Positions 8,025-32,270 are shown, counted from the stretch's first letter. The stretch is 64,000 nucleotides of DNA from an uncultured Gemmatimonadaceae bacterium (GCA_963822945.1 CAWGJO010000024.1:96001-160000), one strand, 5' to 3'. Made by a program: numbers and translations. Notes: generated by a model not told the origin, from the sequence alone.

Positions 8025-8953
8025 TGGGATCCTCCCTGTGGAGTGCCGGCCGAGCCAGGCGCGGGGTGCGCCGGCACGGGAGTGAGTTTGACCATCTCGG
8101 CGTGGAACGCACGCCACTGCGCGGCGTCGAGCAGCGCGACGCCGGCTGCGAATCCGTTGTCCGGCGGTCCCGCCATGGCCACGCGCGCGAAGGTCTCGAC
8201 GCTCGTACGCCAGCCGGGCGTCTGGGCCAGCACCTGGGCGGCGCGCTGCGCATTCCCGACCAGCCGTCGCCGCAGCATCGCCGGTCTACTGGAATCGGCG
8301 GGCGACGGGAGCGCGACGGCGCCCGGCGCCGAGAACTCGGCCGCCATGTGGAGCATGACGGTGGGCACCGCCACCTTGTTCGGCGCCCGCGGGCCCTCGG
8401 ACAGGTGATACTTGGCGTCCACCTTGGCGATCTCGGCAGCGATGTCGTCGTGATGGTCGAAGTGGCCCAGCGACTGCACGTAGTGGGCGACCGCAAAGCG
8501 GTCGGCGGGCGGGAGGGCATCGAAGGCGGCCATCCCGGTGCCTTTGATTCCGTCGGTGAGCGTGGTGTAGATGTCGGCGATCGTGTAGCCCACGGTCCAA
8601 CCCTTTGGGCTGGTGAGATTGCGCGGACGTGGGGTGAGCGCCACGGCTGCGGCGCCGTCTCCCTTGCCGGCGGCGCCATGGCAGACCACGCAGTCCGTGT
8701 TGAAGAGTTGCTTGCCCTGGGCCAAGGCCTGCGGCGTGACCGTGAAGAGCTGTTTGAGGTCGAGGCCGGGAGCCGGCTTCCCGATGACCGTCGGGAAGAT
8801 CGTGGGATCGGAGTCGGCACGTGTCGGCGGCTGGTACTTCAGTCGCGGTGCTTCACGTCCCTGCAGCACCGTGTTGCCGCCGGCGATGACCAGGCCGAGC
8901 GTGATGAGCGCGCTCCCGACCACCATCGCGATGCGTTTGGATTGATAAGGCAT
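8021..8953 (-). CDS. Membrane-anchored monoheme cytochrome c with C-terminal extension
   Basis: N-terminal TM helix, CVVCH, PRPRNLT, GTGMAAF. Confidence 0.85.
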   Translation of the reverse strand: MPYQSKRIAMVVGSALITLGLVIAGGNTVLQGREAPRLKYQPPTRADSDPTIFPTVIGKPAPGLDLKQLFTVTPQALAQGKQLFNTDCVVCHGAAGKGDGAAAVALTPRPRNLTSPKGWTVGYTIADIYTTLTDGIKGTGMAAFDALPPADRFAVAHYVQSLGHFDHHDDIAAEIAKVDAKYHLSEGPRAPNKVAVPTVMLHMAAEFSAPGAVALPSPADSSRPAMLRRRLVGNAQRAAQVLAQTPGWRTSVETFARVAMAGPPDNGFAAGVALLDAAQWRAFHAEMVKLTPVPAHPAPGSAGTPQGGSQ

Positions 8954-8966
8954 ACGGGGGGTCCTC

Positions 8967-15572: not shown

Positions 15573-15774
15573 GGCGCTTCACCGAGTGGGGCGCGGGCTG
15601 GACGCGGCGCGCGGGGGCCTTAAGTCCCCGGGAAACGCGCGACGCCGTTCCCCGCGGCAGGATTCGCCGGAGCACCGACGCGCTCAGCATCAGCGCTCCG
15701 AAGGCGGCGGCCATCTGCGCGAGCGTCTGGCGACGACTCTGTACCTGCATCTCGTGGCTCCTGAGTCCGTTCAT
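15565..15774 (-). CDS. Small (69 aa) hypothetical protein with twin-arginine-like motif between actA and actB
   Basis: ATG overlaps the actA TGA and the stop overlaps the actB start. SRRQTL followed by a hydrophobic helix. Confidence 0.6.
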   Translation of the reverse strand: MNGLRSHEMQVQSRRQTLAQMAAAFGALMLSASVLRRILPRGTASRVSRGLKAPARRVQPAPHSVKRHG

Positions 15775-16394
15775 CGGTGGCATGCCGTGCAGTCCGTGGG
15801 GCCGCGCAGCGCCGACGAATCCGGCGGCAGATACGGGCCCGGATTCCGGTGGCAGTCCAGGCACTTGCCCATGCGCATGTTCATCACGCGGGACACCACG
15901 TCCATCGTCTGGACGGCCCCGTGGCACGTCTGGCACTCGATGCCGACGTTCACGTGCGACCGGTGATCGAAGTACACGTGATCGGGAAGGTGATAGACCC
16001 GCTTCCACGTCATCGCGGTATCCGTGGCCAATCGCGCCACGACTTGTGTGTTGATATAGGTGCTGTCGGCCATGGTGATGAACCGGTGACAGTTCATGCA
16101 CGTCTGGACAGCGGGGATGGTGGCGTGCCGGCTGCGGTCCGCATTCGTGTGGCAGTACTCGCAGGGAATGCGGTTCAGCCCCGAGTGCACGCGGTGGGAG
16201 AATGGGATGGGTTGCACCGGCGCGTAGCCAAGGGCAAACCGCGCGGGCTCGGCGGCCCAGCCGACGACCAGCATCGTCGCGATGGCCAGCACCGCTCCCA
16301 ATGGAAACACGACACGCCAGAAACGATCACGCGGATGCACCCGCAGCCCCCGAAGCAAAGCGTCAGCCAATCGCTCCACCATTGACTGCGTCAT
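15771..16394 (-). CDS. actA: Alternative complex III subunit A, pentaheme cytochrome c
   Basis: TM helix, GYAPVQPIPFSHRVH, five CxxCH (CEYCH, CMNCH, CQTCH, CLDCH, CTACH). Confidence 0.92.
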   Translation of the reverse strand: MTQSMVERLADALLRGLRVHPRDRFWRVVFPLGAVLAIATMLVVGWAAEPARFALGYAPVQPIPFSHRVHSGLNRIPCEYCHTNADRSRHATIPAVQTCMNCHRFITMADSTYINTQVVARLATDTAMTWKRVYHLPDHVYFDHRSHVNVGIECQTCHGAVQTMDVVSRVMNMRMGKCLDCHRNPGPYLPPDSSALRGPTDCTACHR

Positions 16395-16704: not shown

Positions 16705-17061
16705 TCAGTCTACCGGCTCGGCGTGGTCGAGGCGCCAACGGGCCGGTGTGCCGCATTCGGTGCACGCGGCGTGTCCGTCGCCGTACAACACCAGGTCGGT
16801 CTCGCGATCGCAGGCCGGACAGGTCGCCCGCACGGTACGGAGTCCGTCCACCGGCAGCCCGTTGCGCACGATCCGCGCGACCATCGCATCGGGGCCCACG
16901 GCCCCGAGCGGGCAGAGGGCCCCGGTGCACTGGTCGCCCACCTCGAGACACACGACCTCGGAATCCAGCAGCGTCGCCTGCCCGTCGTGCTCCGGCGCGT
17001 CGGTGATGACGAGATTCACTTCGCGCTCGCAGGCGTTGCAGAACAGCCGGTGGCTCTTCAT
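16705..17061 (-). CDS. Cys-rich hypothetical protein (putative Zn/Fe-binding), last gene of the rnf operon
   Basis: CNAC, C-x6-C-x4-C, CPAC, CTEC; GAGGAGG RBS. Confidence 0.8.
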   Translation of the reverse strand: MKSHRLFCNACEREVNLVITDAPEHDGQATLLDSEVVCLEVGDQCTGALCPLGAVGPDAMVARIVRNGLPVDGLRTVRATCPACDRETDLVLYGDGHAACTECGTPARWRLDHAEPVD

Positions 17062-17071
17062 ACCGCCCTCC

Positions 17072-18067
17072 TCAGGTCAACGGAATCGCTTCGGCTCCAG
17101 GGATCATGCGGCGGGCCAACGTGGTGGCGGCGGCGTGCGACAACCCGAACCCGGAGGTCGACGCCGCGTCGGCGTCGATGGCCCGGTCGCCGAGAATGGT
17201 GAGACTGTGGATCGGCGTCAGGCGCGGCGCCGCGGTGACGGGGTCCATCAGGTGGTGATACCGATGGCCGCGCCAGCGGAAGAAGCGCTCGTAGTCGCCC
17301 GAGGTCGTCACGGCGCGGTCCGCCACGTCGAGGGTCGCCGACAGTGCCGAGAGGTCGCGTGGATTGCGGATGCCCACCTTCCACGGCTCGCCCTCCGGCG
17401 AATGGCCGAGCGCGTACAGATCGCCACCAACGGTGACGATGGCATGCGCGATCCCGCGATCGCGCAGGGCGGCGGTGGCGCGATCGATGCCGTAGCCCTT
17501 GGCGATCGCTCCCAGGTCGAGATGGATGTCGCGGTCGTCGTAGCGCAACGCCGGCGCGCCATGGAAGGTCGCGAGGTCCACCTTGCGCCAGAATCCGCGA
17601 TTGGCGAGCCGCTTGACCTGCGTGGCCGGCGGCGGTTCGTGGCGGTGCAGCACGTCCCAGAGTTCCGACACCTCGCCCGCCGCCGGATCGAACCGGCCGT
17701 CGCTGGCCGACGCCCAATCGAGGGCCCGCCGCACGACGAGCGCCGTCTCCGGTCGGATGGTGACGCCTTCACGGGCCGCGCCGAGGTTGGCCCGCCCGAT
17801 GTCGGAGGTCGCGGTGAACCGGGTCATCGTGCGCTCGACCCATCGCAGCTCGGCGATCGCCGCGTCGATGGCGGCTTCGGCGCGGTGCACGTCGCCGTGG
17901 GCGACCTGGATCTCGGCGATGGTGCCCATCACCGGAATGGTCCGCTTGGTGGTTGCGATGCGGCGCCGGAAGGCGATGGGCAGCGAGAGCCCGACGAACA
18001 TACCGGTGCCGATGGTCAGGAATTCGCGCCGACCCAGCTTCGAGCGCGACTCGGGGTCAAGAGGCAT
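17072..18067 (-). CDS. apbE: FAD:protein FMN transferase (flavinylates RnfG/RnfD), Tat signal
   Basis: RREFL, MGT, DLGAIAKGY, GGD, TSGDYER, YHHLMDP, ADAAST. Confidence 0.93.
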   Translation of the reverse strand: MPLDPESRSKLGRREFLTIGTGMFVGLSLPIAFRRRIATTKRTIPVMGTIAEIQVAHGDVHRAEAAIDAAIAELRWVERTMTRFTATSDIGRANLGAAREGVTIRPETALVVRRALDWASASDGRFDPAAGEVSELWDVLHRHEPPPATQVKRLANRGFWRKVDLATFHGAPALRYDDRDIHLDLGAIAKGYGIDRATAALRDRGIAHAIVTVGGDLYALGHSPEGEPWKVGIRNPRDLSALSATLDVADRAVTTSGDYERFFRWRGHRYHHLMDPVTAAPRLTPIHSLTILGDRAIDADAASTSGFGLSHAAATTLARRMIPGAEAIPLT

Positions 18068-18206
18068 GATGATCTCCTTCGTTCCAGCGCTCGCACGAGC
18101 CGCCGGTACAACCTGTGCAGTGGCCGGTGCAGCTGCGATGCGGAACCAGGCCGTAGAGGGCGAACAGGGCCGCCCCGATCACGATGGCGATGATGGTCCC
18201 TGTCAT
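18057..18206 (-). CDS. 49-aa Cys-rich membrane microprotein (resembles FeoB-associated Cys-rich protein / NqrM-like accessory)
   Basis: MTGTIIAIVIGAALFALYGLVPHRSCTGHCTGCTGGSCERW...; ATGA overlap with the rnfA stop; 3' end overlaps apbE. Confidence 0.7.
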   Translation of the reverse strand: MTGTIIAIVIGAALFALYGLVPHRSCTGHCTGCTGGSCERWNEGDHHAS

Positions 18207-18781
18207 CCCGCAGTCCCCATGCCGGCGAATCCCATGAACGCCATCGACAGGCACGACGCGATCACGAGCACGAGTCCCATGCGGCGCGCCACCATCGGGA
18301 TGTCGGAGAGCTCCATGCGCTCCCGGATGGACGCCATGAGCGCGAGGGCCAGGGTGAGGCCGGCCCCGGCGCCGAGCGCGAACACCAGCCCCTCGGCCAG
18401 CGTGTAGCCCCGGCTGGTCTGGAAGAGCGCGAGCCCCAGAATGGCGCAGTTGGTGGTGATCAGCGGCAGGTAGATGCCGAGCTGCCGGAAGAGCACGGGG
18501 AGGTACTTCTTGACACCCATCTCCACGATCTGCACGACCGACGCGATGACGACGATGAACGCGATCGTGCGAAGATACGGCGTGCGGGCGAGCACGAAGG
18601 TGTTCAGAACCCACACGCTGACCGCTGTGAGAATGAGCACGAAGGTGTTGGCGAGGCCCAACCGCCACGCCGTCTCGACCTTGCCGGTGACCCCGAAAAA
18701 GGAGCACAGGCCCAGGAACATCACGAGCGTGAAGTTGTTGACCAACATCGTCGAGATGAAGATCCACGAGAGATTACTCAT
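18203..18781 (-). CDS. rnfA: Rnf complex subunit A
   Basis: NNFTLVMFLGLCSFFG, LGIYLPLITTNCAILG. Confidence 0.93.
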   Translation of the reverse strand: MSNLSWIFISTMLVNNFTLVMFLGLCSFFGVTGKVETAWRLGLANTFVLILTAVSVWVLNTFVLARTPYLRTIAFIVVIASVVQIVEMGVKKYLPVLFRQLGIYLPLITTNCAILGLALFQTSRGYTLAEGLVFALGAGAGLTLALALMASIRERMELSDIPMVARRMGLVLVIASCLSMAFMGFAGMGTAG

Positions 18782-19488
18782 GCGAGGGCCCTCCGTGCCC
18801 GGCGCTTGCGCAGCTCCATGACGTAGGCCACTCCCAGCAGGGCGATCCCGAGGGCGAGGAACCCGCCCGGCGGCAGCATCATGAACACCCAGGGTTCGAA
18901 GCGCGGTCCGAACAACGGATAGCCGAGGATGCTCCCGTTCCCCAGGACCTCGCGAATCGTGCTCAGCAGGGCCAGCGCCAGCGTGAAGCCCATGCCCATG
19001 CCGAATCCGTCGGCCAGGGCCCGGCGCACCGGCACCTTGGCCGCGAACGCCTCGGCGCGGCCCAGCAGCAGGCAGTTGGCGACGATGAGCGGAATGAACG
19101 GGCCCAGCGCTTTGCGAATGTCGGGCACCACGGCCGCCAGGATCATGTCGGCGAGCGTCACGAACGTCGCGATGATCAGGATGTACGACGTGATCCGCAC
19201 CTCGTGCGCGATGTACTTGCGGAACAACGACACGAACAGCCCGGAGCCGACGAGAACGAACGTCGTCGCCAGCCCCATCGCGAGGCCGTTGGCCAGCACG
19301 TTCGTGACCGCCATCGTCGGGCACATGCCGAGGAGCTGCACGAGCACGGGGTTCTCGCGGCCGATGCCCCGCCAGATGTCGGCGAGCACGGTGGCCGGCG
19401 GCGGCGCGCCCGGGACGAACTCTACGGCGCCCAGAAACCCCGGCGGGGGCGGCGCCTCCGCTGGTTCGCCGACTGGAACGGACGTCAC
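18778..19488 (-). CDS. rnfE: Rnf complex subunit E
   Basis: ENPVLVQLLGMCPTMAVT, FIPLIVANC, LPPGGF. Confidence 0.93.
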   Translation of the reverse strand: MTSVPVGEPAEAPPPPGFLGAVEFVPGAPPPATVLADIWRGIGRENPVLVQLLGMCPTMAVTNVLANGLAMGLATTFVLVGSGLFVSLFRKYIAHEVRITSYILIIATFVTLADMILAAVVPDIRKALGPFIPLIVANCLLLGRAEAFAAKVPVRRALADGFGMGMGFTLALALLSTIREVLGNGSILGYPLFGPRFEPWVFMMLPPGGFLALGIALLGVAYVMELRKRRARRALA

Positions 19489-20159
19489 GGTTGGCCTCCA
19501 CGATCGTAGGCTTGAAGCAGCGGGCGCCACTTGGCGATCGCATTGTTGATGATGCGAATCACGGCGCGCGACGAGATCGTCGCGCCGGAGATGGTCTGGA
19601 CCTGGCTCGGGTCGTTGCCGGAGCGCGTCTTCACGCCGGTCAGCGGCGCGACACGACCGGCGAACTGGTCGCCGAACGCGGTGTCGGTCTCGATTCGCTG
19701 GCCGAGCCCCGGGGTCTCCTGCTGGTCCAGCACCTTGTAGCCGGTGAGCGTCCCGGTCGCGGGATCGAAGCCGATCATCAGCGTGATCAGTTCCTGGAAC
19801 CCCGGCTCCGCGGCGGTCACCGCCACGCCGAGCTCCCGGCCACCGGCGTCGAAGCCGACGAACGCCTTCTGGGCGGCCTGCTTGTCCACGCCCTCGGGCG
19901 GCGTCTTCGACAGCGCCTTGCCCACCAGGTACAGCGTGTCCCACCGGGCGGGGGCTTTGAGCACCTCGCTCACTGCGCCGGCCTCCTGCTCGGCGGCGTG
20001 CCTCTGGACGGCCGGGAGCGTGAGGTTGTACACGGTGACGATGAGCCACCCGGCGGCCGCGCCGGCGATGCCGAGCGTGGCGAGCAGCTTCCACGCCGGC
20101 GTGCTCTTCTGTTCCGCCGGCGGCGGCGGCGGGACGTGGCAGTGCGGCGCGGCCGTCAT
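19485..20159 (-). CDS. rnfG: Rnf complex subunit G (FMN-binding)
   Basis: ETPGLG and ISGATISS covalent FMN motif; N-terminal TM helix. Confidence 0.92.
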   Translation of the reverse strand: MTAAPHCHVPPPPPAEQKSTPAWKLLATLGIAGAAAGWLIVTVYNLTLPAVQRHAAEQEAGAVSEVLKAPARWDTLYLVGKALSKTPPEGVDKQAAQKAFVGFDAGGRELGVAVTAAEPGFQELITLMIGFDPATGTLTGYKVLDQQETPGLGQRIETDTAFGDQFAGRVAPLTGVKTRSGNDPSQVQTISGATISSRAVIRIINNAIAKWRPLLQAYDRGGQP

Positions 20160-21160
20160 GACGCGGTCCTCGCGGCGGTACCGAACACTCTCGGCTGCGT
20201 GGCGCGGTTGATGAACGGCACCAGCGCGTTCATGAACAGGATGGCGTACATCACGCCCTCCGGCAGCCCGCCCCAGACGCGAATCACGACCACCAGAATG
20301 CCGATGCCGGCTCCGAACACCCAGCGCCCCAGGTTGGTGACCGGCGAGGTGACCATGTCGGTGGCCATGTACACGGCGCCGAGCATGAGACCGCCCGAGA
20401 ACACCATGAACATCGCCCCCGGCCATTGCGGCCTGATGGCGTGCAGAATCGCGCTGAACACCGCCACCGTGAGGATGATGCTCACGGGAATCCGCCAGTT
20501 GAGATAGTTGCGCACGGCCAGGTACGCGCCGCACGCCAGGATCACGAGCGCCGCCGTCTCGCCCACCGACCCGCCGGTGGTGCCGAGGATCAGGTGCATG
20601 AGCGAGGTGCCCTTCCCCTCGAACTTCAGCAGTCCGAGCGGCGTCGCCGACGTCACAGCGTTGACCGCGGGATGGAGGAAGGGCGCGACGAAGAGATCGC
20701 CCTTGAGCGTGAAGAAGCCGCCACCCGCCGTGGGCCAGGTGGTGATGGCCACCGGGAAGGCCCCCTGCAGGAAGGCGCGGCCCACCAGCGCCGGATTGAA
20801 GACGTTCTGTCCGAGCCCGCCCCACACCGCCTTCCCGAATCCGATGCCGAACGCGCCGCCGACGAACACCATCCAGAGGGGCATTCCGGCGGGGAGCGTG
20901 AGCCCGAGCAGCAGACCCGTGATCGCGGCCGATCCATCGGCCAGCGACCCGCCCTTGCCGAACGCGCGTTCCGCCGCCACCGATCCGAGCACCGCCGCGG
21001 CGATGACGAGCAGCGCGCTGATGCCGAAGAACCACGCCGACGCTGCAATCACGGGAACCAGGCTGCCGACCACGTTCCACATGATGCGCGGGGTCGAGTC
21101 CGCGGGCTTGAGGTGCGGCGACGCGGTGACGATCAGCCGCGGGACGGTCGGGGCGCTCAT
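20156..21160 (-). CDS. rnfD: Rnf complex subunit D
   Basis: SPH, GGLGQNVFNPALVGR, TSATPL FMN site, MATDMVTSP. Confidence 0.93.
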   Translation of the reverse strand: MSAPTVPRLIVTASPHLKPADSTPRIMWNVVGSLVPVIAASAWFFGISALLVIAAAVLGSVAAERAFGKGGSLADGSAAITGLLLGLTLPAGMPLWMVFVGGAFGIGFGKAVWGGLGQNVFNPALVGRAFLQGAFPVAITTWPTAGGGFFTLKGDLFVAPFLHPAVNAVTSATPLGLLKFEGKGTSLMHLILGTTGGSVGETAALVILACGAYLAVRNYLNWRIPVSIILTVAVFSAILHAIRPQWPGAMFMVFSGGLMLGAVYMATDMVTSPVTNLGRWVFGAGIGILVVVIRVWGGLPEGVMYAILFMNALVPFINRATQPRVFGTAARTAS

Positions 21161-22485
21161 TGGAGGGTCGCGAGTTGGCGCCGGAGCGCGGCCTTGCTCG
21201 CCTGGAAGAGCTGGGCGAGCGGAATGTTCGACGGACAGACGTAGGCGCAGGAGCCGCACAGCATGCAGTCGGACAGGTGCATGGCCGCCATGTCCTCGTA
21301 ACGCCGAACCTGCGCCAGCTCACCGAGCGTCGACGGGTTCAGGAACACGGGGCATGCTTCGAGGCAGCGTCCGCAGTGGATGCAGGCCCAGCTCTGCTCG
21401 TTGCGCGTCTCGTCGCGCGCGAGCACCACGACGCCCGTGGTGCCCTTCACCACCGGCGCGTCGAGATTCGCCTGGGCCTGCCCCATCATCGGCCCGCCGA
21501 TGATCACCTCGGCCGCGTCGGCCGTCACGCCGTCGCAGAAGGCCAGCAGATCGCGCAGCTTGGTGCCGACGGGAACGATCAGATTCGCGGGGCGACGCAG
21601 CCCGTGACCGGAGACGGTCACGATCCGTTCCACCAGCGGCAGGCCGGTCTCGAAGACCTCGGCAATGGCGGCCACCGACCCGACGTTCTGCACCACCACG
21701 CCCACCGTCACCGGCAGCTTGCCCGACGGCACCTCGAAGCCGGTCACGGCCTTGATCAGCATCTTCTCGGCGCCCTGCGGGTACTTGACGGTAAGCGGCA
21801 GGATCTCGACGTCCAGGTCGGCGGGCACGGCCGCGAGCATCGCGGCCACGGCGTCCGGCTTGTTGCGTTCGATGCCGACCACGCACTTGGTGACGCCGAG
21901 CGAGCGCATCATCACGCGGATGCCGAACATGACCCGGGGCGCGTATTCGACCATGGTCCGGTGGTCGGACGTCAGGTAGGGCTCGCATTCGGCGCCGTTG
22001 ATGATCAGCGTGTGAACGGTGGCGTCCTTGGGCGGCGCCAGCTTCACGTGCGTGGGAAATGCCGCGCCGCCCAGCCCCACCACGCCGGCGCTCTGAACGG
22101 CACGGACCACCTCGTCGGTGGAGAGCCCTTCCCAGCGCGGAACCATGCGCGGCCGCGGGATGTGCGGAGCGTACCGGTCCACCTTGATCCGCACGGCCTC
22201 GGCCATGGAACCGTCGGGGTGCGGCCACCATCCGATGTCCACCACCGTCCCGGCGGCCGAGGCATGAATGGGCACCGACATGAACCCGTCGGCCTGGCCC
22301 ACCGGATCGCCGCGTTCCACATGATCGCCCACCTTGACGCACAGCGTGGCGGGCTTGCCCGCATGCTGCCGCAGCGGGAGTACCACCTCGTCGGGGTACG
22401 GCATGCGGCGAATGGGCAGTTGATTGGTGAGCCCCTTCTCTTCCGGCGGGTGAACGCCGTGCCGGAATCCCAGCGAAATCGCCAT
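21157..22485 (-). CDS. rnfC: Rnf complex subunit C (alternative TTG start at 22491)
   Basis: GVHPPEEK, QHAGKP, GLGGAAFPT, NGAECEPYL, CIHCGRCLEACP, CMLCGSCAYVCP. Confidence 0.94.
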   Translation of the reverse strand: MAISLGFRHGVHPPEEKGLTNQLPIRRMPYPDEVVLPLRQHAGKPATLCVKVGDHVERGDPVGQADGFMSVPIHASAAGTVVDIGWWPHPDGSMAEAVRIKVDRYAPHIPRPRMVPRWEGLSTDEVVRAVQSAGVVGLGGAAFPTHVKLAPPKDATVHTLIINGAECEPYLTSDHRTMVEYAPRVMFGIRVMMRSLGVTKCVVGIERNKPDAVAAMLAAVPADLDVEILPLTVKYPQGAEKMLIKAVTGFEVPSGKLPVTVGVVVQNVGSVAAIAEVFETGLPLVERIVTVSGHGLRRPANLIVPVGTKLRDLLAFCDGVTADAAEVIIGGPMMGQAQANLDAPVVKGTTGVVVLARDETRNEQSWACIHCGRCLEACPVFLNPSTLGELAQVRRYEDMAAMHLSDCMLCGSCAYVCPSNIPLAQLFQASKAALRRQLATLQ

Positions 22486-22492
22486 CGTCAAC

Positions 22493-25400
22493 TCAGTTGA
22501 ACTTCGCGCCGCGCTTCACCCATTTCTCCAGATCCTTCTCCTTGGGGTTGAGCGGCGTGCCGGGGTGGATGATCGACACCGGGCAGCGCTCGGCCGCAGT
22601 GACGAGTTGCTGATACGTGCCGGCACTCGCGTCCTTCACGTAGGCCTGCTTGTCCGCGTTGTACGCGAACATGCGCTTGTTGAGATTGGTGCATTCGTTG
22701 CAGGTCGTGCAGCGCACCGAGTCGATGTAGGCTTCGAGCGCCAGTTCCCCGTCGTCGTCGTCTTCCACGGCCACGGTGGCCGTACCCGCCGCCACCGGCG
22801 CCGTGGGGGCCGAGGCCGTGGCGGGTTCCGCCGCGGGAGCGGGCGCAGGCGGCGGCGGTGCGGCGTCGACCGGCGCGGGGGCCGCAGCGACCGCGCTCCC
22901 CGCTCCGTTGCCGTTGCTCACCACCGCCGGCAGCGACGCCAGCAGTTCGCCGATTGCCGACCCGCCGCCGTGCCGCATCAGCCCTTCGGCCAGGCGGCGG
23001 GCGATCTGCGGCGGATAGCTGGCTTTGAGTTCGTCGATCCTGGCCTCGTATTCGGCGCGTACCGCCGACAGCCTCTGTTCGAACTCGGCGGCCAACGCAT
23101 CGGCCACCGCGTCGTGCACGGTCTGCGGGATCTCGAGACCGGCCAACTGCTTCAGCTGCGACCAGAAGTGCAGCCGCTCCTCGGCCAGGATCACCATCTC
23201 GGCGGAGACGCCGAGGCGGCGGAGCGTCCGGTCCTTGGCGACGGCCAGGATGTACGGCGTGTGGCCGTCGCGCTCCTCCACCGGGAGGGCGACGAATTCC
23301 GCAAACGGCAGCATGTCGTCGGTCCATGCGTCCGGCGGGAGTTCGGTGAAGTGCTGCTTGAACCGCGTCTCGGTGGCGGCCCAGTCGGCGATCGTGAGCG
23401 GCAGGTCGAGCGTCTGCTCCGCGCCCTCGTCGTCGAGGTACTTCATGGTGTAGGTCGGCCACGTCTCGTCGATGGACGGATTGCCGTCGAGCGTCAGGCA
23501 GTCGGCGAATGCGCCGCCGGCGTCCGGATCGTAGGTCAGGAACGGGAAGGCGCGGCTCTCCAGCGCCAGCCGCGCCGCCTGCTGCGACCAGTCGTCGGCG
23601 AGGCCGTGCTCCACGGGGCACGGCGTGTAGATATTGAACACCGCGGGCCGGCGCTTGTGCAGTCCCTTGAGCACGCCCGCCACGAGATGCGACGCCGAAG
23701 CCTGCGACGACTGGTGCACGTACGCGCCGCGATGGGCGATGGCGAGGAGCGCCAATTCCTTGCGCACTTCGCTCTTGCCGTGCTGCGCCTTGCCGTACGC
23801 CGTCATGTCGGCCACCTGCCCGGTGTAGCCCGAGGTGCAGGCCTGGCCGCCGGTGTTCGAATACACCTGCGTGTCGAGCACCACCACCTTGATCGGCTTC
23901 CCGGAGGCGAGCAGCCGAGAGAGGTTCTGGAATCCGATGTCGAGCATCGCGCCGTCGCCGCCCATCGCGAGGATCGGCGGGCAGAGGGCGAATTCGTCAT
24001 CGGTGAACTGCTTCCACGTGAGCGACCGCAGCGCGGGTTCGTGCGCCGCCGCGTCGTACGTGCCGCCGGCGAGCAGCTCGGCGCGCCGCACCGCGGCCGT
24101 GTCGTCGGCCATCTTGCGCATCTGCGCTTCGAACACGCCGATCGCGATCGACGGCGCGTCCTGGAACAGGTGGTTGGCCCACGGGAACGGATACGGATTG
24201 TACGGCCAGGTGCTCGCCCACACCGACGAGCAGCCGGTGCTGTTGGCCATGCCCATGCGGCGCACGCCCCTCGCCGCTCGGCCCCTCGACATAACGCCAC
24301 CTGAGATCGCGCAACGCGTGGAGCGAGTCGTTGATCCGGGCCAGCCGCTCGTGCTTGGCGGCGTCCACCGGCACGCTCACCGCGGCACCCGCCTTGGCGG
24401 CCGCATCGAGATCGGCCCCCGAGGCGAGCAGCTCGCGCGCCTGCGCGTCGAGGGTCTCGATGAGTCCGTCGAGCTTGGCCACCTGCGCGGCCACGCGCGG
24501 CTGCATGGACGCGTGGATGGAGGAGACGATCAGATGGACGGCCGTCTTCTCCCCGCACCCCATGCAGGCCCCGTCGCCGCCCACCATCGAGCGGTAGTTC
24601 TGCTTCCGCAGGAGCAGCGACGACAGCACCCCGATCCCCTCGTCCACGTCCGAGACGTTGACGAACCGGTCGGCGGTATCGGGCAGTTGCTCCCACAGCG
24701 TCCAGTTCCTGCGCAGCCGTTCGAGCGCCGGCTCGTCCTGCTTGATCGTCACCAGCGCGCCGTCGGGACAGGCCGCGACACAGAGGTTGCAGCCCTTGCA
24801 CGCTTCCGGATTGACGGTGATCGAGAGCAGCCCGCCGCCGCCCTTTTCCCGCGCTTCGACGGCGTCGAAGAACGGCTTGGTGCGCGCCAGCGGGAACGCT
24901 GCCAGGCGCTCCTGGATGATCGCGAACTCGCGGTCGGTCTCGGCGCGGCGGTCGGGCTCCCAGCCCATCTTGTCGGCCACCGTCGTGTAGCCGGCGGCGA
25001 ACGCCGCGGGCACGGAAAGCGATGCGTCCTTGGTGAGTTGCCGGTGCGTCTCGCGTGCCCAGTGCTTCGTGATCGGGCGCAACCGGTCGAACGTCACGCC
25101 GTTGCTCGACACGTCCATGGCCGTGGACAGCAGGTCCTCCTCGCTGTTCACGAGACCGGGGATGGCCGAGTCGGGGCACTGCGTCCAGCACTGGGCGCAC
25201 CCGGTGCACTTCTCGGCGACGAACTCCGGGACTTCCAGGCGCACACCGCTCATGTCGCGCACGGCGCCCGTGGCGGCCGGCATCGCGCTGATCGCGGCGA
25301 ACGGATCGGCAATCCCGTCCTGGCCCAGGGCGCACAGCGTGCACACCTGCTCCCAGAACCGGCCCGGGTTGCCGACGCCCTGCTCGGCCGCCGGCACGTC

Positions 25401-27572
25401 GAGCAGCGACGGAATGTGCGGCACCGTGCCGGCCTCTTCGTGCGTCTCGATCTCGACCGCCTTCACGGGCAGCACCTGATCGAAGCCGCGGCGGATCACG
25501 CGGAGGTTGTCCTCCACCACGGTCGCGCCGCGGTGGCCGAACTTCTTCTGGAACTGCTTGCGGACGCCCTCGAATACCTTCGCTTCGGACGACCCCTCGG
25601 CCGCGATCAGGCTCGACGTGCGGAAGAAGGCACCGAGGAACGCCGCCCCCTGCATGCGATACCGCATCTCGACGTCGGAGGCCTCTTCGCGCGCGATCGC
25701 GAAGGCATCGAGCACGAACAGTTTGATGTGCCGCTCGATGATCGACGACCGGACGCGCGTGGGCAGCGTGCCCCAGAACTCGTCGGGCGGGAGGTCGCTC
25801 TGGATCACGAACACGCCGCCGTCGGCCAATCCGGCCAGCGGATCGCTGTGGCGGAACACGTTCGGGTCGGGCGACAGCACCACGTCCACGTGCTTGAGTT
25901 CGCAGTTGAGCAGAATGGGGTCGTGGGCCAGCACGGCGTAGAACGTGGTGGGCTGCCCCTTCTTCTCCGAGCCGTATTTCGGGTTGGCCTTGATCTGAAG
26001 CCCGAACAACTCGAACGCCGTCATCGCCAGGTTCTTACCCATGGTGATGGCGCCCCACCCGCCCACGGAGTGAATGCGCACCGCGGTCGAGCCCTTGGGC
26101 AGCAGGTTGGGTACGGTCGCCGGCGCGAGCGCCATCTCTGCCAGGTGCGGGTACGCGTCGACCAGCTTCTCCTGCCAGATCTGGAGCTTGGGAATGCGCG
26201 TGCCTTCGCGTACGAACTCGACGCCCAGGTAGAACTGGCGCCGCTGGGCTCCCTCCGGCAGCATGTTGTTCACCGCCGCCACGAGGTCCCCGGGCTGCAG
26301 GTCGCGGCTTCCGAGACCGAAGCATCCGGAGTAGAAGTCGGGCACCTGCTCGGAGTGGAGCGCCGGAATGCCGGCGTGCGGCGCATGAGCGCCGTGCGCG
26401 CGCCCGTTCTCCACGGCCTTGGCCATGGCGGCGCGGATCTCGCGCAGCATCGGCGGATCCACGGCCAGGGGCTGGTCGAGCCGCTCCAGGACCACGACGC
26501 CGCGCTTGCCCGCCAGGAGGCCGGCCACGAGATCGGCCGGGAATGGACGGAACATCGTGAGATTGAGGACGCCGACCTTGAGACCGCGCGCCTCACGCAG
26601 ATAGTCGGCCACCGCCATCGCATTCGGAACGACGGAGCCCTGCCCCACGATCGCCCATTCGGCGTCGTCCAGCCGGTACCCGCTGGCCCGCGCGTAGCGG
26701 CGGCCGGTGAGCGCGGCGTATTCGTCGAACGCCTGGTCGGCGAGCGTCACGATATGGTCGAAGTAGAACGGGCGCTGGGCGGCCACGCCCTGGGCGTAGC
26801 TGTCCTGGTTCTGCACCACGCCGAGCATCGCCGGATAGTCCAGGTCGAACATTTCCGGAATGCGGCGCCGGATCTCGCCGAACACCATGCGTTGGGCCGG
26901 CGTGGGGGACTCGATGCGGTCCGACGGATCGCCGAGGTAGGCCTTGACCAGCGCCGGCTCGGGAATCCGCGCGCTCTCGATCACGTGGCTGGTGAGAAAG
27001 CCGTCCTGCGCGCAGATGCCCGGATTGAGCGACAGCTCGGCGATCCGGTGCGCGACGAGATTCAGGTCGGCCGCTTCCTGCACGTCCTTGGCGAACATCT
27101 GGAAGAAGCCGGTATCGTCCACGGCATGGTAGTCGTCGTGGCCGGCGTGCACGTTGAGCGCGTGCTTGGTCATCGCCCGCGCAGCGACGTTGAGCACGTA
27201 GGTCAGCCGCTTGCCGACCGCGGCGTACAACGACTCGTGCATGTAGGCGATGCCCTGCCCGCTCGAGAAGTTGGTGGCGCGGAGTCCGGACATCGACATT
27301 CCGGCCGTGACCGCCGCGGCCGCGTGTTCCCCTTCAGGCTCGAAGAACAGCAGGCGCCGGCCGTTCACGTTCTCCTTGCCCTCTGCCACCGCCGCCGCCC
27401 AGCCTTCCCCCATCTGCGTGGAGGGAGTGATCGGGTACGCGCCCGCCGCTTCGCCGGCCGCCGTTTCCATGGCCACCACCGCCGCGCTGCCATCCAGCGC
27501 GCGCGGGATGCCGGGGTACGGCGGCGAAGTCGTCTCGCCCGACGTGGGCTTGCCCTTGGTCCAGAGTTTCAT
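22493..27572 (-). CDS. Giant single-chain pyruvate:ferredoxin/flavodoxin oxidoreductase-like protein (about 1690 aa) with C-terminal tethered ferredoxin; one frameshift near 24260
   Basis: YPITPS, EGEHAAA, CTGCAQCWTQCP, CKGCNLCVAACP, ACMGCGE; after the shift NSTGCSSVW, GGDGAMLDIG, VYSNTGGQ, YTPCP; terminal CTTCNEC...CP. Confidence 0.9.
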
Positions 27573-28423
27573 GCTGCCTCGCTCCCGACGGTCTCCGGCA
27601 CGCGAGCGAACTGCGCACCGTTCAGCCAGACGATTGCGCCGGTCGGGCACCGCTCGATAGCGCGATGCTCGGCCTGCGTGATGCGTTCGTAGTCCACCAC
27701 CGCCACGCCGCTGTCGATGCTGATCAATCCTTCCGCGGCGTCCAGCACGCACTTCCCGCACGCCGTGCAGGCCACGCGGCACTGCTCCAGCGCGTCATCC
27801 CCGTTGATCAGGTTCCGGCACTGCACCAGCAGGTGCGCATCCAGCGGCAGGATCGTGAACAGCCCCTTGGGACAGGCGTCCACGCAGTCACCGCACGCGG
27901 TGCAACGGGCGAGGTCCACCACCGGCAGGCCCGTGTCGCTCATCTGAATGGCGTCGAAGGTGCACGACACCGCGCAGTCGGCGAGACCCAGGCATCCCCA
28001 GGCGCATCCCTTGGCGCCGCCGGCCACCGACGCGGCCGCGGCGCACGTGGGAAGCCCGCGGTACTCGGCCTGGCTCACGGCCACGTCGGTGCCGCCGGCG
28101 CAGAGCAACCGCGCCACGCGGCGCGAGGCGTTGCCCGCATCCACGCCGAGGAAGTCGGCGATCTGCTTGTGCACCGAGTCGCTGGCCACCGTGCACTCCG
28201 ATGGCGCGATCTTGCCGTCCACGGCGCCCTCGGCGAACGCCCGGCAGCCGGGATGCCCGCAGGCGCCGCAATTGGCGTTGGGGAGCATCTGCGAGACGAT
28301 CTCGATGCGGGGATCCTCCCACACCCAGAGTTGCTTGTTGGCGAGGGCGATGAAGACGCCGAACACCAATCCGACCCCACCCAGGACCATGATCGCATGG
28401 AGGGTCACCGTCAGCGCGCTCAC
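27569..28423 (-). CDS. rnfB: Rnf complex subunit B
   Basis: TM helix, LPNANCGACGHPGC, CLGLADCAVSC, CTACGDCVDACP, CTACGKC...CP. Confidence 0.92.
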   Translation of the reverse strand: MSALTVTLHAIMVLGGVGLVFGVFIALANKQLWVWEDPRIEIVSQMLPNANCGACGHPGCRAFAEGAVDGKIAPSECTVASDSVHKQIADFLGVDAGNASRRVARLLCAGGTDVAVSQAEYRGLPTCAAAASVAGGAKGCAWGCLGLADCAVSCTFDAIQMSDTGLPVVDLARCTACGDCVDACPKGLFTILPLDAHLLVQCRNLINGDDALEQCRVACTACGKCVLDAAEGLISIDSGVAVVDYERITQAEHRAIERCPTGAIVWLNGAQFARVPETVGSEAA

Positions 28424-28424
28424 G

Positions 28425-29429
28425 TTACGCCTTCCCCTGCAGGCCGGATTCGGTGAGCAGCCACGACGCGATGCGCTCGACCGCATCGGACGCCCCGACC
28501 GCCGGGGCGCCGGCGCCGGCCGGCGTGGGCACGGCGAACGGCGTGCGGGCGATGTCGGCCAGCAGCTTCAGGTCCTCGCCCATCTGAAAGGCGCTCAGCC
28601 CGCGGACGGCGCGCTTCGGCGCCTCCGGCAGGTGCTGCACGGTGAGCCGCTGCCAGGGTTCGCGTCCGGCGAGCGGATCGTGCATGAACGTCGCCGAGCC
28701 CTCGGGCATCATGGCGGCGATCGCCGGTCCATCGAAGGCCGCCGCCCGGTCGAGGCCGGATCCGTCGGTGGTCTGGAGCACGAAGGCGCCGGGCGTGATG
28801 CACCGCGCCAGCGGAGCCGGCGCGCTCGGTCCGCGCACCACGAGCACCAACTTCTCGCGCCCGTCGGCGAAGTCGGTCAGCGCGCCGGCGTGTACGTCCG
28901 CCCCGTCCACCTCGATCACCAACGGCGGGGCGAACCGCCGCTCGGTCTTCGTCCAGCGGTGGAACTCCACGGGGTCGAGGAGGCGGTCGTGGTCGGCGGC
29001 CACGTACCGGCCGCCGCGCGCCAACTCCGTCAGCATCACGGCGCCGAACGCCAGGCCCGCCGCGCTCAACGCCGCATCCACCACGCTCGCCAGCCGCCCA
29101 CCCGGCGGCACGTCGGCAACGAACAGGTCGTTGCCGCGCGCCGCCACGCCTCGAAGCACGTCGGCGGCGCGATGGAGGGCCGCCACCGCGGCATCGTCCA
29201 CGCGGCGGGCCTTCGGGAAGAGGGCAGCGAACGCGGCCGCGTCCACGCGTCCGTCGGCGAATTCGCCGAGTGCCGACCGTGCGCCGGCGGCCGCCACTTC
29301 GGTCGTGGCGGCCCGGGCCGCGAGAAAGTCCTCGGCCTGGGCCAGCGCGCCATCCACCAGCGTGCGAAATTCGGCAATCGGCTGCGCCAGCGCCGTGAGC
29401 GCCTGGGCCGTGCGGGGATCAGACGGCAT
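28425..29429 (-). CDS. Hypothetical protein (334 aa) between korB and rnfB
   Basis: Long ORF with coding-like codon use, overlapping the korB end and 1 bp from rnfB; no cofactor motif. Confidence 0.8.
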   Translation of the reverse strand: MPSDPRTAQALTALAQPIAEFRTLVDGALAQAEDFLAARAATTEVAAAGARSALGEFADGRVDAAAFAALFPKARRVDDAAVAALHRAADVLRGVAARGNDLFVADVPPGGRLASVVDAALSAAGLAFGAVMLTELARGGRYVAADHDRLLDPVEFHRWTKTERRFAPPLVIEVDGADVHAGALTDFADGREKLVLVVRGPSAPAPLARCITPGAFVLQTTDGSGLDRAAAFDGPAIAAMMPEGSATFMHDPLAGREPWQRLTVQHLPEAPKRAVRGLSAFQMGEDLKLLADIARTPFAVPTPAGAGAPAVGASDAVERIASWLLTESGLQGKA

Positions 29430-30375
29430 AACGGTCGAGCTCCGCGTCGATGAGGGCCACCCGCTCCGCGGCCGTGCGCGGCGGTACGCGCCGCGTCTCC
29501 TCGTAGCGGGGTTTGGAATCGTCCCGGAAGAACACGCCGAGATTCACGCGGTCGGTGTCGCCGGCCATGCGCCGGGCAGCGTCGAGGTCGTGCACGTCGT
29601 GCCCCACCTGGTTCTGATAGAGCTTCGCCAACTCGGGCACTACGACGCCGTCGTCGTGCACGAGCATGTTGATGTTCGATGGATCCTGCACCGCCTTCAG
29701 ATAGATGGCGCTGGAGTAAATCGGGCAGCGCTGCAGGATGCGCACGAAGCTGAGTCCCCGATGCTGCCGCGCCGCGCGAAGTGTCGCGTACAGGTGGGCG
29801 GGCACCCACTCGGCCGTCTGGGCGACGAACGAGGCGTTGGTGACGCCGAGCGCCACCTGCAATGGGTTCAGCGCCGGAAGCCAGCTGCCACGCGGCTGCG
29901 TATTGCTGGGAAATCCCTGCGGCGTGGTGGGCGACGTCTGCTGCTTGGTGAGTCCGTAGATGCCGTTGTCCAGCAGCAGCACGGTCAGATCGAGATTGTA
30001 GCGCAGCGCGTGCACCCAGTGGCCGGCGCCGATCGAGGTGCAATCGCCGTCGCCCATCACCACGAAGATGTTGAGGTCGGGACGCTGCAGCCGGATGCCC
30101 GTGGCCACGGGCAGCGCGCGGCCGTGGATGCCGTGGAAGCCGTAGGTCTTCAGATAATGCGGGAACCGGCTCGAGCATCCGATGCCGGACACGAACACCG
30201 TGTTCTCCGGCGTCAGCTGCTCGGCGGCCAGCAGCCGCTCGACCGCCGTGAGGATCGAGTGGTCGCCGCAGCCGGGACACCAGCGGGCACGCGCCCCTTC
30301 GTAGTCGTTGATCTCGTACTCGTAGTCTTCCGCGTTCAGTTCGAGCACGGGAAGATGACAGTGGGTCATCGTCAT
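29419..30375 (-). CDS. korB: 2-oxoacid:ferredoxin oxidoreductase beta subunit (TPP-binding)
   Basis: WCPGCGD, SGIGCSSR, HGRALP, GDGD, DNGIYGLTK. Confidence 0.9.
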   Translation of the reverse strand: MTMTHCHLPVLELNAEDYEYEINDYEGARARWCPGCGDHSILTAVERLLAAEQLTPENTVFVSGIGCSSRFPHYLKTYGFHGIHGRALPVATGIRLQRPDLNIFVVMGDGDCTSIGAGHWVHALRYNLDLTVLLLDNGIYGLTKQQTSPTTPQGFPSNTQPRGSWLPALNPLQVALGVTNASFVAQTAEWVPAHLYATLRAARQHRGLSFVRILQRCPIYSSAIYLKAVQDPSNINMLVHDDGVVVPELAKLYQNQVGHDVHDLDAARRMAGDTDRVNLGVFFRDDSKPRYEETRRVPPRTAAERVALIDAELDRYAV

Positions 30376-32270
30376 GAGGCGCGTCCTCCGCGCGGCATGT
30401 GGCCGCGGATGGCGTCGGCGATCGCGCCGGGACGCAGTGGCTCGCCCGGTACGCGTGTCCAGCAGTCGACGTCCACGAGCGTCGCGTTGCGCAGCAGGAT
30501 GCTGAGCTGCCCGCGCCGCCGGTTCTCTTCGGTGATGTACGGATCGCCGGGTTCGTCGCTGTAGTTGATCTCCACCGTCATCACCTTCTTGAAGCGGCGG
30601 AAGATGTCGCGGAGCCCCGGTTCGAGCGGGGAGAGGAATCGCAGGTGCAGCGACGAGACCTTGAGGCCTTCGGCGCGCGCGCGATCCACGGCTTCCTCGA
30701 TCGCACCCTTCGTGCTCCCCCAGCCGACGATGAGCAGGTCGCCCTTCGCATCGCCGTACACCGCCGGCGGCTGCAGCAGGCTCTGCAGTACGGCGAGCTT
30801 GCGGCTCCGCATCGACGACGAACGTTGATGCACGCCCGAGCTGTACGCCACCTTGCTGCCCTCGTCGTGCGAGAGCCCGGTGACGGTGTGCATGCCGCCG
30901 GCCTGGCCGGGCACCACCCGGGTGGAGAGCCCCGTCTCCGGATTCCACTGGTAGGGTTTGTGTCCGTCGGGCACCGGGCTCAGGTCCACCGGTTCGGCGA
31001 ACCAGCGCTCGTCGGGCTTGGGCCGTTTGAACGGCGTCACGCCCGTGGCCAGGTTGGCATCGGAGAGGACCATCACCACCGCGCGGAACGTCTCGGCAAT
31101 GCGGCGCGCCGTGATCATCACGTGGAAGCACTCCTCGATCGTCGCCGGCGCGATGATGACGTGCGGAGCGTCGCCCGTCTGGCCGTAGAGCGCGGCCAGC
31201 AGATCCGACTGTTCGACCTTGGTCGGCAGTCCCGTGCTCGGCCCGCCGCGCTGGACCTCGACCACCACCAGCGGCATCTCGGTCATGATCGCCAGGCCGA
31301 GAAATTCCGTCTTGAGCGCGAGTCCCGGCCCCGACGTGATCGTGAAGGCGACCTTGCCCGAATACGACGCGCCGATGGCGACGCCGGCGGCGGCAATCTC
31401 GTCCTCGGCCTGATGCACGATCCCGCCGAAGCGCTCGAACACCTCGCTCAGGTAGTGCGACACCGACGTCGCCGGCGTGATCGGATACATCGCGCACATC
31501 TCCATGCCGGCGGCAATCGCGCCGAGGCCGATCGCCTCGTTGCCGTTCATCACGACGAGCGCGTCATCCGACGGCGCGGGGGCGACCTCGATCCGCAGAT
31601 CGAGATGCTCCTCGGCCCAGGCGTATCCGAGTTTCAGGAGGGCGACGTTCTTTTCGTAGACCTCCTCGCTTTTCTTGCGGAAGGTGTAGGCGATCTGGTC
31701 GCGGATGCGGTCCATGTCGCGATCGTAGACGTACGCCAACAGCCCGAGCGCGAACATGTTCTTGCCCTTGCGTGGATTGTCCACCACGGTCAGGCACTGC
31801 TCCTCCATCGGGACGGGGATGATCCGGTAGTCGCGCGTGGACAACTCCTTCATGGCCTGTTCCCACGCCGCCCGGATCTCCGGGTCCTCGTCGGTCGCCC
31901 ACTTGTTCTCCACCAGCAGCACGGCATCCGGGGCGAGCGCGTCGAGGCGATGCCGGGCCAGCAGCACCTGCTCGTTGAACGCCACGGCGAGTTGCGTCGC
32001 GTCACCCCAATTGGTGACCGCGGCGGACCCGATGCGAATGCGGTAGCCGCTGGCTCCCTCCGGAACGCGGGCCGGCGGCTGGATCTCGGCGGGGATGATC
32101 TCTACCGTCCAGACCCCGTTGCCCATCTTTGCCGAGACGGCGCCGAAGATCTGGCCGCACTTCTGCGCCCCTTCCCCGGAATCGGAGACGATCTCGACGG
32201 TATGTTCGGGAACGCGAAGCGCCTTCGGCCGGACGGCGCCGGCTGTCCTGGGGGCGGATTCGGTGAGCAT
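30372..32270 (-). CDS. korA: 2-oxoacid:ferredoxin oxidoreductase alpha subunit (gamma-alpha fusion, KorA type)
   Basis: DSGEG, NGNEA, YPITPA, QAEDE, TSGPG, QRGGPSTGLPTK. Confidence 0.9.
   Translation of the reverse strand: MLTESAPRTAGAVRPKALRVPEHTVEIVSDSGEGAQKCGQIFGAVSAKMGNGVWTVEIIPAEIQPPARVPEGASGYRIRIGSAAVTNWGDATQLAVAFNEQVLLARHRLDALAPDAVLLVENKWATDEDPEIRAAWEQAMKELSTRDYRIIPVPMEEQCLTVVDNPRKGKNMFALGLLAYVYDRDMDRIRDQIAYTFRKKSEEVYEKNVALLKLGYAWAEEHLDLRIEVAPAPSDDALVVMNGNEAIGLGAIAAGMEMCAMYPITPATSVSHYLSEVFERFGGIVHQAEDEIAAAGVAIGASYSGKVAFTITSGPGLALKTEFLGLAIMTEMPLVVVEVQRGGPSTGLPTKVEQSDLLAALYGQTGDAPHVIIAPATIEECFHVMITARRIAETFRAVVMVLSDANLATGVTPFKRPKPDERWFAEPVDLSPVPDGHKPYQWNPETGLSTRVVPGQAGGMHTVTGLSHDEGSKVAYSSGVHQRSSSMRSRKLAVLQSLLQPPAVYGDAKGDLLIVGWGSTKGAIEEAVDRARAEGLKVSSLHLRFLSPLEPGLRDIFRRFKKVMTVEINYSDEPGDPYITEENRRRGQLSILLRNATLVDVDCWTRVPGEPLRPGAIADAIRGHMPRGGRAS

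Follow-up and report, generated by a model that had tools for sequence, protein, structure and literature searches.

The stretch of DNA analysed here, referred to throughout as the window, comprises 64,000 nucleotides (nt) from an uncultured Gemmatimonadaceae bacterium (GCA_963822945.1, CAWGJO010000024.1:96001-160000). On its minus strand, from position 32270 to 16705, lies a unit of 13 genes that joins two 2-oxoacid:ferredoxin oxidoreductases (OFORs) to a complete Rnf complex in the order korA-korB-orf334-rnfB-PFOR-rnfC-rnfD-rnfG-rnfE-rnfA-microprotein-apbE-Cys protein, where PFOR denotes a giant pyruvate:ferredoxin oxidoreductase. The unit is strictly conserved and biochemically unstudied, with its core order mentioned in passing in print, and it looks specialised in three respects: a dedicated KorA paralogue, a ferredoxin domain tethered to the PFOR and an altered RnfB. 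We consider it somewhat probable that these genes encode a dedicated module, in which the PFOR reduces its tethered ferredoxin, which passes electrons to RnfB, and in which Orf334 binds KorA and brings KorAB within reach. A first-pass annotation of the window had proposed a candidate supercomplex of OFORs and Rnf, an interpretation that is partly supported by the results below.

Gene order, conservation and related layouts

The operon was borne out in the order claimed in the first-pass annotation, with overlapping or nearly abutting genes: nine of the 12 junctions overlap and the other three are spaced by 1, 1 and 10 nt. The overlap is 4 nt at korA/korB, rnfB/PFOR, rnfC/rnfD, rnfD/rnfG, rnfG/rnfE, rnfE/rnfA and rnfA/microprotein, and 11 nt at korB/orf334 and microprotein/apbE; the spacing is 1 nt at orf334/rnfB and at PFOR/rnfC (the latter with a TTG start, or 7 nt if an ATG start is taken) and 10 nt at apbE/Cys protein. 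Internal signals that could split the unit, a possibility raised in the same annotation, were looked for: a sigma-70 scan, in itself uninformative, gave no minus-strand promoter-like site inside the unit, and terminator-like sites are at chance level, with three found as opposed to 5.9 expected. The home assembly of this high-GC bacterium (G000) is 88% complete. In RNA run X1 the median depth is 38.8 over 25 bins in the unit against 4.9 over five flanking bins, in run X2 5.3 against 1.5 and in DNA run X4 2.8 against 3.4, contig depth being a sum over several organisms that cannot rank genes; no RNA contig spanning the whole unit was present among the runs examined. The features are listed in Table 1.

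Table 1. Features of the 13-gene unit, with positions in the window
Feature	Position	Strand	Basis
korA, alpha subunit, domains III-I-II, 632 amino acids (aa), operon-specific paralogue	30372..32270	-	TIGR03710, 6N2N_A
korB, beta subunit, domain VI, 318 aa	29419..30375	-	PF02775, PF12367
orf334, apparently cofactor-less paralogue of PFOR domain VI, predicted non-catalytic KorA partner	28425..29429	-	fold, profile, complex prediction
Hairpin tip of Orf334 (residues 49-70), predicted KorA docking site	29220..29285	-	predicted interface, conservation
rnfB, 284 aa, long type, 20 conserved Cys	27569..28423	-	solved relatives 9ERI_B, 7ZC6_B
Giant one-chain PFOR-type enzyme, 1692 aa	22493..27572	-	profile matches, alignments, catalytic census, L001 homologue model
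Extra base breaking PFOR frame	24259..24261	-	homologous loci and RNA contigs
Pro/Ala-rich flexible tether, acidic end	22736..22978	-	homologue alignment, model pLDDT
Tethered single-cluster ferredoxin domain, CxxCxxC...CP	22493..22735	-	PF13370, 1DAX
rnfC	21157..22491	-	TIGR01945 529 bits, cut-off 246
rnfD	20156..21160	-	TIGR01946 300 bits, cut-off 207; TSAT at 170
rnfG	19485..20159	-	PF04205; TIGR01947 101.8 bits, cut-off 102; SGAT at 191
rnfE	18778..19488	-	NF009070 224.9 bits, cut-off 184; C56, C139
rnfA	18203..18781	-	PF02508; TIGR01943 214.9 bits, cut-off 229.3; C26, C112
Membrane microprotein, 49 aa, four Cys	18057..18206	-	in 14/15 long loci
apbE flavin transferase	17072..18067	-	PF02424, E 3e-70
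Cys-rich protein, 118 aa, zinc-ribbon-like	16705..17061	-	sub-threshold zinc-ribbon matches only

Conservation of the order across genomes, for which a synteny search had been suggested, was examined in the 118 loci found with Orf334 (L001-L038 and L040-L119); L039, a weak partial match, was left out, and second korAB copies of less than 45% identity were ignored. Every testable junction from korA to rnfD was kept, namely korA-korB (81/81), korB-orf334 (107/107), orf334-rnfB (113/113), rnfB-PFOR (83/83), PFOR-rnfC (40/40) and rnfC-rnfD (39/39), followed by rnfD-rnfG (35/35, two of them with inserts of 1.3-1.4 kb), rnfG-rnfE (32/33) and rnfE-rnfA (31/31). Of 15 long loci reaching rnfA, all contain apbE, 14 the microprotein and 10 the Cys protein. 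Locus L001 is 99% identical to that of the window, as is its Orf334. The first-pass annotation had named rnfABCDGE and rnfCDGEAB as the canonical orders; this is incomplete, as passages in two papers also describe rnfBCDGEA (PMC3534657; PMC4287430). Smaller rearrangements were also seen: the microprotein and apbE are relocated together between rnfG and rnfE in L094 and L169, inserts of 1.3-1.5 kb separate rnfD and rnfG in L030, L032 and L171, and some genomes have, a few kb ahead of the operon-type korAB, a copy of the ordinary kind (L025 994-2591; the L165 region, G059 C3:1133173).

In one sample of 301 Gemmatimonadota genomes, Orf334 is present in 52. KorA homologues occur in 214 of these genomes, a count that takes in one unpublished genome, and the operon type (68-94% identity) in 53, including 52/52 of those with Orf334, the other KorA sequences having at most 49% identity. 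RnfC was found in 64 genomes, 13 in family f10 (without Orf334) and 51 others; 50 of these 51 carry Orf334, and 50 of the 52 Orf334 genomes carry RnfC. A full-length Orf334 occurs in 2/301 genomes of the Acidobacteriota (the phylum of G302), one of the two being the seed, and in none of 400 genomes of the class of G301, which is inferred to be the Gammaproteobacteria.

The genomes of this phylum and class with weak matches only contain two further layouts, seen in 16 regions from 15 of 18 genomes; the arrangement of the window is termed layout C. Layout A (10 loci) consists of rnfB, an intact giant PFOR with ferredoxin and rnfCDGEA, and neither korAB nor an Orf334-like gene precedes rnfB in the 8/8 loci with upstream DNA. 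Layout B (six loci: L150, L151, L153-L156) consists of a dead PFOR relative of 820-1290 aa ending in a ferredoxin, rnfB, a second dead PFOR and rnfCDG, with korAB directly upstream in five of the six. In common with the window it has korAB, rnfB, a large relative of PFOR and rnfCDG, and the slot of Orf334 is occupied by a dead gene derived from PFOR. However, the thiamine and proximal-cluster residues are gone from its large PFOR, in which only the domain-V cysteines remain, and its tethered ferredoxin sits on the slot protein instead of the large PFOR.

Several genomes combine or extend these layouts. Genome G389 carries both layout A (L158, intact PFOR) and layout B (L150, korAB and dead PFORs). 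The korA gene of L150 and L151 follows an additional RnfC-like gene, one resembling a flavoprotein gene and one for a small iron-sulfur protein. Layout A is followed by genes that we labelled, by reading their sequences, as FNR-like or phosphoenolpyruvate synthase-like (L145 1374-2240; L152 8671-9546; also after rnfA in L144, L146, L147 and L157), the latter hinting at a gluconeogenic use of this layout.

Specialised components of the unit

The giant PFOR comprises domains I-II-III-V-VI; two helical insertions interrupt V and VI, and beyond domain VI the chain continues with an extension, a 50-residue helix, a tether and the ferredoxin domain. It shares its domain order, the thiamine and pyruvate residues and 12 cluster cysteines with the one-subunit PFORs of Desulfovibrio africanus (1B0P) and Moorella thermoacetica (6CIN), but is about 500 residues longer owing to these additions. 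Among 90 loci with any PFOR sequence, the Thr of YPITP is kept in 83/89, the thiamine Glu in 84/85, the substrate Arg in 81/82, GDG in 53/53 and the Asn in 49/53, and each of the 12 cluster cysteines in every locus covering it (50-62 loci each). The equivalence of these sites to those of D. africanus is seen in the alignments. A catalytically dead enzyme was considered and rejected for layout C, as the catalytic residues are kept. The two halves score 299.8 and 95.9 bits against TIGR02176 (NifJ, cut-off 911.35), and the EKR family (domain IV) is not among the Pfam matches. By these sequence criteria the protein appears to be of the functional PFOR type but to form a separate subfamily, and the conserved Thr, Arg and Asn suggest the oxidation of pyruvate with CoA. 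In some loci from Vicinamibacteria and other Acidobacteriota, the substrate-site Asn is replaced by Asp (L015, L025, L028, L031) and the Thr of YPITP by Ala or Ser (L015, L025, L031), which may reflect an altered specificity or an early decay toward the dead variant.

As assembled, the PFOR frame is broken by one extra base. The frame is continuous in L001 and in 11 other loci compared at this site, and in two RNA runs, taken from separate studies, one contig each is without the base, so that an assembly error is the most likely cause; a programmed frameshift and a pseudogene were rejected on the same grounds. Other broken genes in the assembly are actB and one oxidase subunit I.

The C-terminal ferredoxin domain matches PF13370 with 35.4 bits (cut-off 24.5) and D. 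africanus ferredoxin I (1DAX) with an E-value of 3e-5, and its four cysteines are kept in every covering locus (38-40 loci each). The tether has about 87 residues in the window; it is rich in Pro and Ala, variable in sequence and, in the model of the L001 homologue, disordered, with a predicted local distance difference test score (pLDDT) below 50 against a mean of 68 for the model. From the last conserved helix to the first ferredoxin cysteine, the distance is 72-113 residues in the 36 measurable of 48 homologues. The statement of the first-pass annotation that the operon holds no free ferredoxin gene is therefore true as far as it goes, but the PFOR ends in a ferredoxin domain of its own and a free ferredoxin is encoded elsewhere in the genome. 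No ferredoxin-tethered form is listed in sections 2, 3 and 5 of a 2026 review of PFORs (PMC13768988).

All six Rnf subunits are present; RnfC, RnfD and RnfE score above the curated cut-offs, and RnfA, RnfB and RnfG below them, yet with Rnf families as their best matches. We take TSAT in RnfD and SGAT in RnfG to be the covalent flavin mononucleotide motifs and assume likewise the identity of the cysteine pairs in RnfA and RnfE. In RnfB, A229, I248, A251 and A255 stand where the homologue of Clostridium tetanomorphum (7ZC6_B) has cluster cysteines, and no cysteine occurs at 229, 251 or 255 in the 103-105 covered loci of 132, nor in eight layout-A and five layout-B loci. Judging from these alignments, one C-terminal iron-sulfur cluster of RnfB appears to have been lost in all three layouts, and its 20 cysteines would correspond to five clusters, as opposed to the six described for C. 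tetanomorphum (PMC12174285). Since the C-terminal domain is named as the ferredoxin acceptor in a passage of the same paper, the loss would fall where a dedicated donor would dock.

The microprotein is a candidate iron-sulfur maturation factor, as its position beside apbE and its cysteine pattern fit NqrM, for which such a role is described (PMC12174285); searches of Pfam and NCBIfam gave no NqrM match and no family over the cut-off. The Atlas neighbours of the 118-aa Cys protein are unnamed Gemmatimonadota clusters.

KorA matches TIGR03710 with 539.9 bits (cut-off 482.75), and its best solved relative is the 2-oxoglutarate:ferredoxin oxidoreductase (OGOR) of Magnetococcus marinus (6N2N_A, E 2e-84). 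YPITP, E291 and R341 of KorA are invariant (48/48), as are the four cluster cysteines, GDG and N137 of KorB (52/52). KorB R70, which has a presumed functional role, is also invariant. KorAB has an alpha subunit of domains III-I-II and a beta subunit of domain VI, lacks domain V and keeps all catalytic residues; it agrees in this layout with M. marinus OGOR and has the Arg found at alpha 303 of that enzyme, with which R341 aligns. The best solved matches of KorB are broad-range OFORs of Sulfolobus. On this sequence evidence 2-oxoglutarate is the likely substrate. The operon KorA is a dedicated paralogue; it differs from M. marinus OGOR in an altered patch on its surface and in a third subunit, predicted and non-catalytic. 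OFORs of the KorAB type contain a single cluster and rely on a ferredoxin from outside (PMC13768988).

Orf334 has no match in Pfam or NCBIfam, sequence and atlas searches gave no named family, and cluster look-ups returned few names. Its model (pLDDT 86) finds PFOR 6CIN_A 806-1170 as the top VIA match (Z 9.2, root-mean-square deviation 6.4, 193 residues aligned), the only one with Z of at least 8, and the top ten Foldseek matches are all PFORs, though with E-values above 0.001. In hhalign, Orf334 and domain VI of the giant PFOR align with a probability of 69% and an E-value of 4e-5, and in 16/52 genomes the second match of the Orf334 profile is the adjacent PFOR frame. Another residue replaces the first Gly of GDG (Val in 101 of 141 sequences), no CxxC occurs in the 141 homologues and the 32-residue Asn loop of domain VI is missing, so that Orf334 would bind neither thiamine nor a cluster. 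Fold and profile together indicate that Orf334 is a dead copy of the thiamine-binding domain (VI) of PFOR. Since its profile also matches 6/6 layout-B slot proteins (best domain 16-22 bits), it is probably a reduced form of the slot gene; a short profile of its hairpin motif gave only 6.2 and 4.0 bits on two of these proteins and less than 0 on the other four. Fusion of Orf334 into longer proteins was seen in none of 8000 scored candidates, which is weak evidence. A singleton of 457 aa on a 3.7-kb contig (P0172) has an Orf334 homologue in frame with a long helix, a tether and a ferredoxin; it may be a genuine intermediate linking layouts B and C or else a chimeric assembly, and was not used as support.

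A complex prediction for Orf334 with KorA (residues 234-624) and KorB (24-300) gave an Orf334-KorA score of 0.79 as opposed to 0.00 for the best of three controls; in the calibration, 116 of 157 solved complexes attained the pass mark, as did 2 of 215 mismatched pairs. The runs share at least 50% of their contacts, and the partner pLDDT is at least 74. In the predicted interface, Orf334 49-70 meets KorA 373-394, 417-423, 446-448, 494-502 and 544-550; no confident contacts to KorB are listed for the model, which is no evidence against such contact. The mean conservation of Orf334 49-70 is 0.75 as opposed to 0.54 in the rest of the protein. This hairpin lies within a family-specific insertion that takes up about 100 residues from the CxxC to the TGCSS position, as opposed to about 20 in 1B0P, and because the hairpin is absent from solved relatives, the predictor is unlikely to have reached the mark by reproducing complexes already solved. 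In a hand-chosen set of 20 layout-C, five layout-B and 20 ordinary KorA copies, T387 is found in 20/20 layout-C copies against Glu in 18/20 ordinary ones, and W423 in 25/25 linked copies against 1/20 ordinary ones. With this support from model and conservation, we are fairly confident that Orf334 binds KorA; that it also links KorAB to the PFOR or to Rnf has roughly even chances.

Proposed function and alternative explanations

In the dedicated module, the giant PFOR would oxidise pyruvate, and the electrons would travel from its domain-V clusters to the ferredoxin tethered to it, which would swing to RnfB; Rnf would then reduce NAD+ and pump H+ or Na+, thereby conserving some of the roughly 200 mV that is lost as heat with pyruvate dehydrogenase. 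KorAB, probably acting on 2-oxoglutarate, has no internal ferredoxin domain, and Orf334, as a non-catalytic subunit of KorA, would most likely hold it within reach of the tethered ferredoxin. The earlier suggestion that both donors feed RnfB directly is better read as transfer via the tethered domain, which probably is the electron donor of RnfB. NAD has a potential of -320 mV. With -515 to -540 mV for pyruvate oxidation (PMC13768988) and about two ions moved by Rnf per NADH (PMC12174285), the oxidative direction yields energy, and a mainly oxidative use under low oxygen is what we would expect. The genome encodes SucA, an E1-alpha, two heme-copper oxidase subunits I and a NiFe hydrogenase, and in view of the first two, the module would run beside the usual dehydrogenases. 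The large subunit of the hydrogenase (G000 C26:21604-23154) occurs in four of five congeners, precisely those with the operon, and was not found in G051, the congener without it.

Several points weigh against the dedicated module. The loci are partly near-identical and come from related genomes, so that the conservation counts are of non-independent events, and the layout-B locus L156 has no korAB in the 8 kb upstream. The supposition of a genome without free ferredoxin was rejected, as one is encoded at G000 C37:19259-19558, and small ferredoxin frames occur in 5/5 congeners; moreover, PFORs are reported to be loose about their partners (PMC13768988). The complex prediction, unlike its calibration, used three chains and alignments of its own, with domain III left out and KorA present only once; a second KorA might normally cover the docked face, which would make the contact an artefact of the dimer face, and at the interface positions KorA is less conserved than elsewhere (0.73 vs 0.84). 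Isocitrate lyase was not found in 5/5 genomes searched (control found in 8/14), which would allow a biosynthetic use. Finally, the substrates, the direction and the physical association of the oxidoreductases with Rnf are all matters that we infer.

The full claim of the first-pass annotation, a stable membrane supercomplex with the PFOR and KorAB-Orf334 docked on RnfB/RnfC and sharing one ferredoxin, appears doubtful. The near-complete translational coupling, the altered C-terminal domain of RnfB, the predicted binding of Orf334 to KorA, the conserved last helix ahead of the flexible ends of both Orf334 and the PFOR and the layouts in which dead PFORs stay as an apparent wire and scaffold are in line with it, but the length of the tether suits a loosely held carrier and not a rigid dock, and layout A works without KorAB and Orf334.

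A mainly reverse operation, in which the ion gradient and NADH would reduce ferredoxin for the carboxylation of acetyl-CoA and succinyl-CoA in acetate assimilation and anaplerosis, is conceivable but rather unlikely. The reverse direction would support carboxylation, the oxidative steps are already covered by dehydrogenases, the missing isocitrate lyase fits, and PFOR has been proposed as a heterotrophic carboxylase in Kentron (PMC6593406); against this, there was no sign of an autotrophic pathway (the control of the ATP citrate lyase search was silent), and G051 lacks both the operon and isocitrate lyase. These explanations are partly compatible with one another and not all exclusive. Single-cluster ferredoxins of the 1DAX type are usually of moderate potential, which also speaks against reverse use.

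Mere co-regulation of genes that are needed together under low oxygen, with electrons flowing mainly through free ferredoxin, with Orf334 as a stabilising or regulatory subunit of KorAB and with the tether serving other acceptors such as the hydrogenase, is improbable: it agrees with the free ferredoxin gene, with the hydrogenase in the four operon-bearing congeners, with the weak partner specificity of PFORs (PMC13768988) and with a reading of por/rnf co-transcription as ferredoxin recycling (PMC6315080), but leaves unexplained why the PFOR is fixed between rnfB and rnfC, why RnfB has lost a cluster in every layout and why dead PFORs with only domain-V cysteines persist between these genes.

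Surroundings, known systems and significance

Directly after the operon, an alternative complex III cluster (8021-16385, minus strand) encodes a multiheme cytochrome, ActB, an NrfD-type ActC, an ActD-E fusion and a further cytochrome; actB is apparently split near 13660, probably by another assembly error, and among the fetched loci this adjacency recurs in L163 only. The genes at 1049-6196 (minus strand) for a proline racemase-like protein, a member of the dihydrodipicolinate synthase family, an aldehyde dehydrogenase and a GntR regulator look like a hydroxyproline catabolic cluster. The end product of hydroxyproline catabolism is 2-oxoglutarate.

The Rnf complexes of C. tetanomorphum (7ZC6), Acetobacterium woodii (9ERI) and Azotobacter vinelandii (8AHX) share with the window the six subunits, a long-type RnfB, the flavinylation motifs, the RnfA and RnfE cysteines and apbE, but only the operon of the window encodes electron donors inside it. 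Closer in arrangement are two symbiont systems of the rnfBCDGEA type with PFOR between rnfB and rnfC: rnf2 of the Solemya velum symbiont, with PFOR genes between rnfB2 and rnfC2 and pyruvate as the suggested donor (PMC4287430), and the rnf clusters of tubeworm symbionts, which are co-localised and co-transcribed with por (Rubin-Blum 2019, PMC6315080). The passages on these symbionts, with which the window was compared by description, mention no korAB in the unit, Orf334, tethered ferredoxin, loss of an RnfB cluster or biochemistry. Other papers mention Rnf, PFOR or korAB separately in the parts concerned (PMC11636981; PMC6593406; PMC4914600; PMC4853749). No publication describing the complete unit, Orf334, the tether or the change in RnfB came up in literature searches that did not extend to subscription journals or bioRxiv supplements. 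The first-pass annotation had called the system under-described, and this holds for the unit as a whole; given that a PFOR between rnfB and rnfC has been noted twice in print, it is not undescribed.

How ferredoxin docks on RnfB is still an unsettled question, and it is customary to regard carriers as one shared pool. A carrier tethered to its donor, together with an RnfB minus one cluster and a recruiting pseudoenzyme, would offer a direct test of channelling and a target for cryo-electron microscopy. In 52 of the 301 sampled Gemmatimonadota, a common but little-studied phylum of soils and sediments, the module would give central metabolism a further step of ion pumping, and this step would also extend to gammaproteobacterial symbionts with the simpler layout. 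For the Orf334 family, at least 496 clusters now annotated as hypothetical, a function is hereby proposed. A bolder and tentative picture, which we hold to be less than probable, is that of a respiratory metabolon, of a kind absent from the literature searched, in which a remodelled Rnf anchors both oxidoreductases, joined by a pseudoenzyme adaptor, and a single swinging-arm ferredoxin serves the two enzymes without any free ferredoxin; the adaptor would stem from a duplication of the PFOR thiamine domain, and the arm may be likened to the lipoyl arm of dehydrogenase complexes. If this were true, the pyruvate and 2-oxoglutarate steps would be sites of ion pumping ahead of complex I in approximately one in six Gemmatimonadota.

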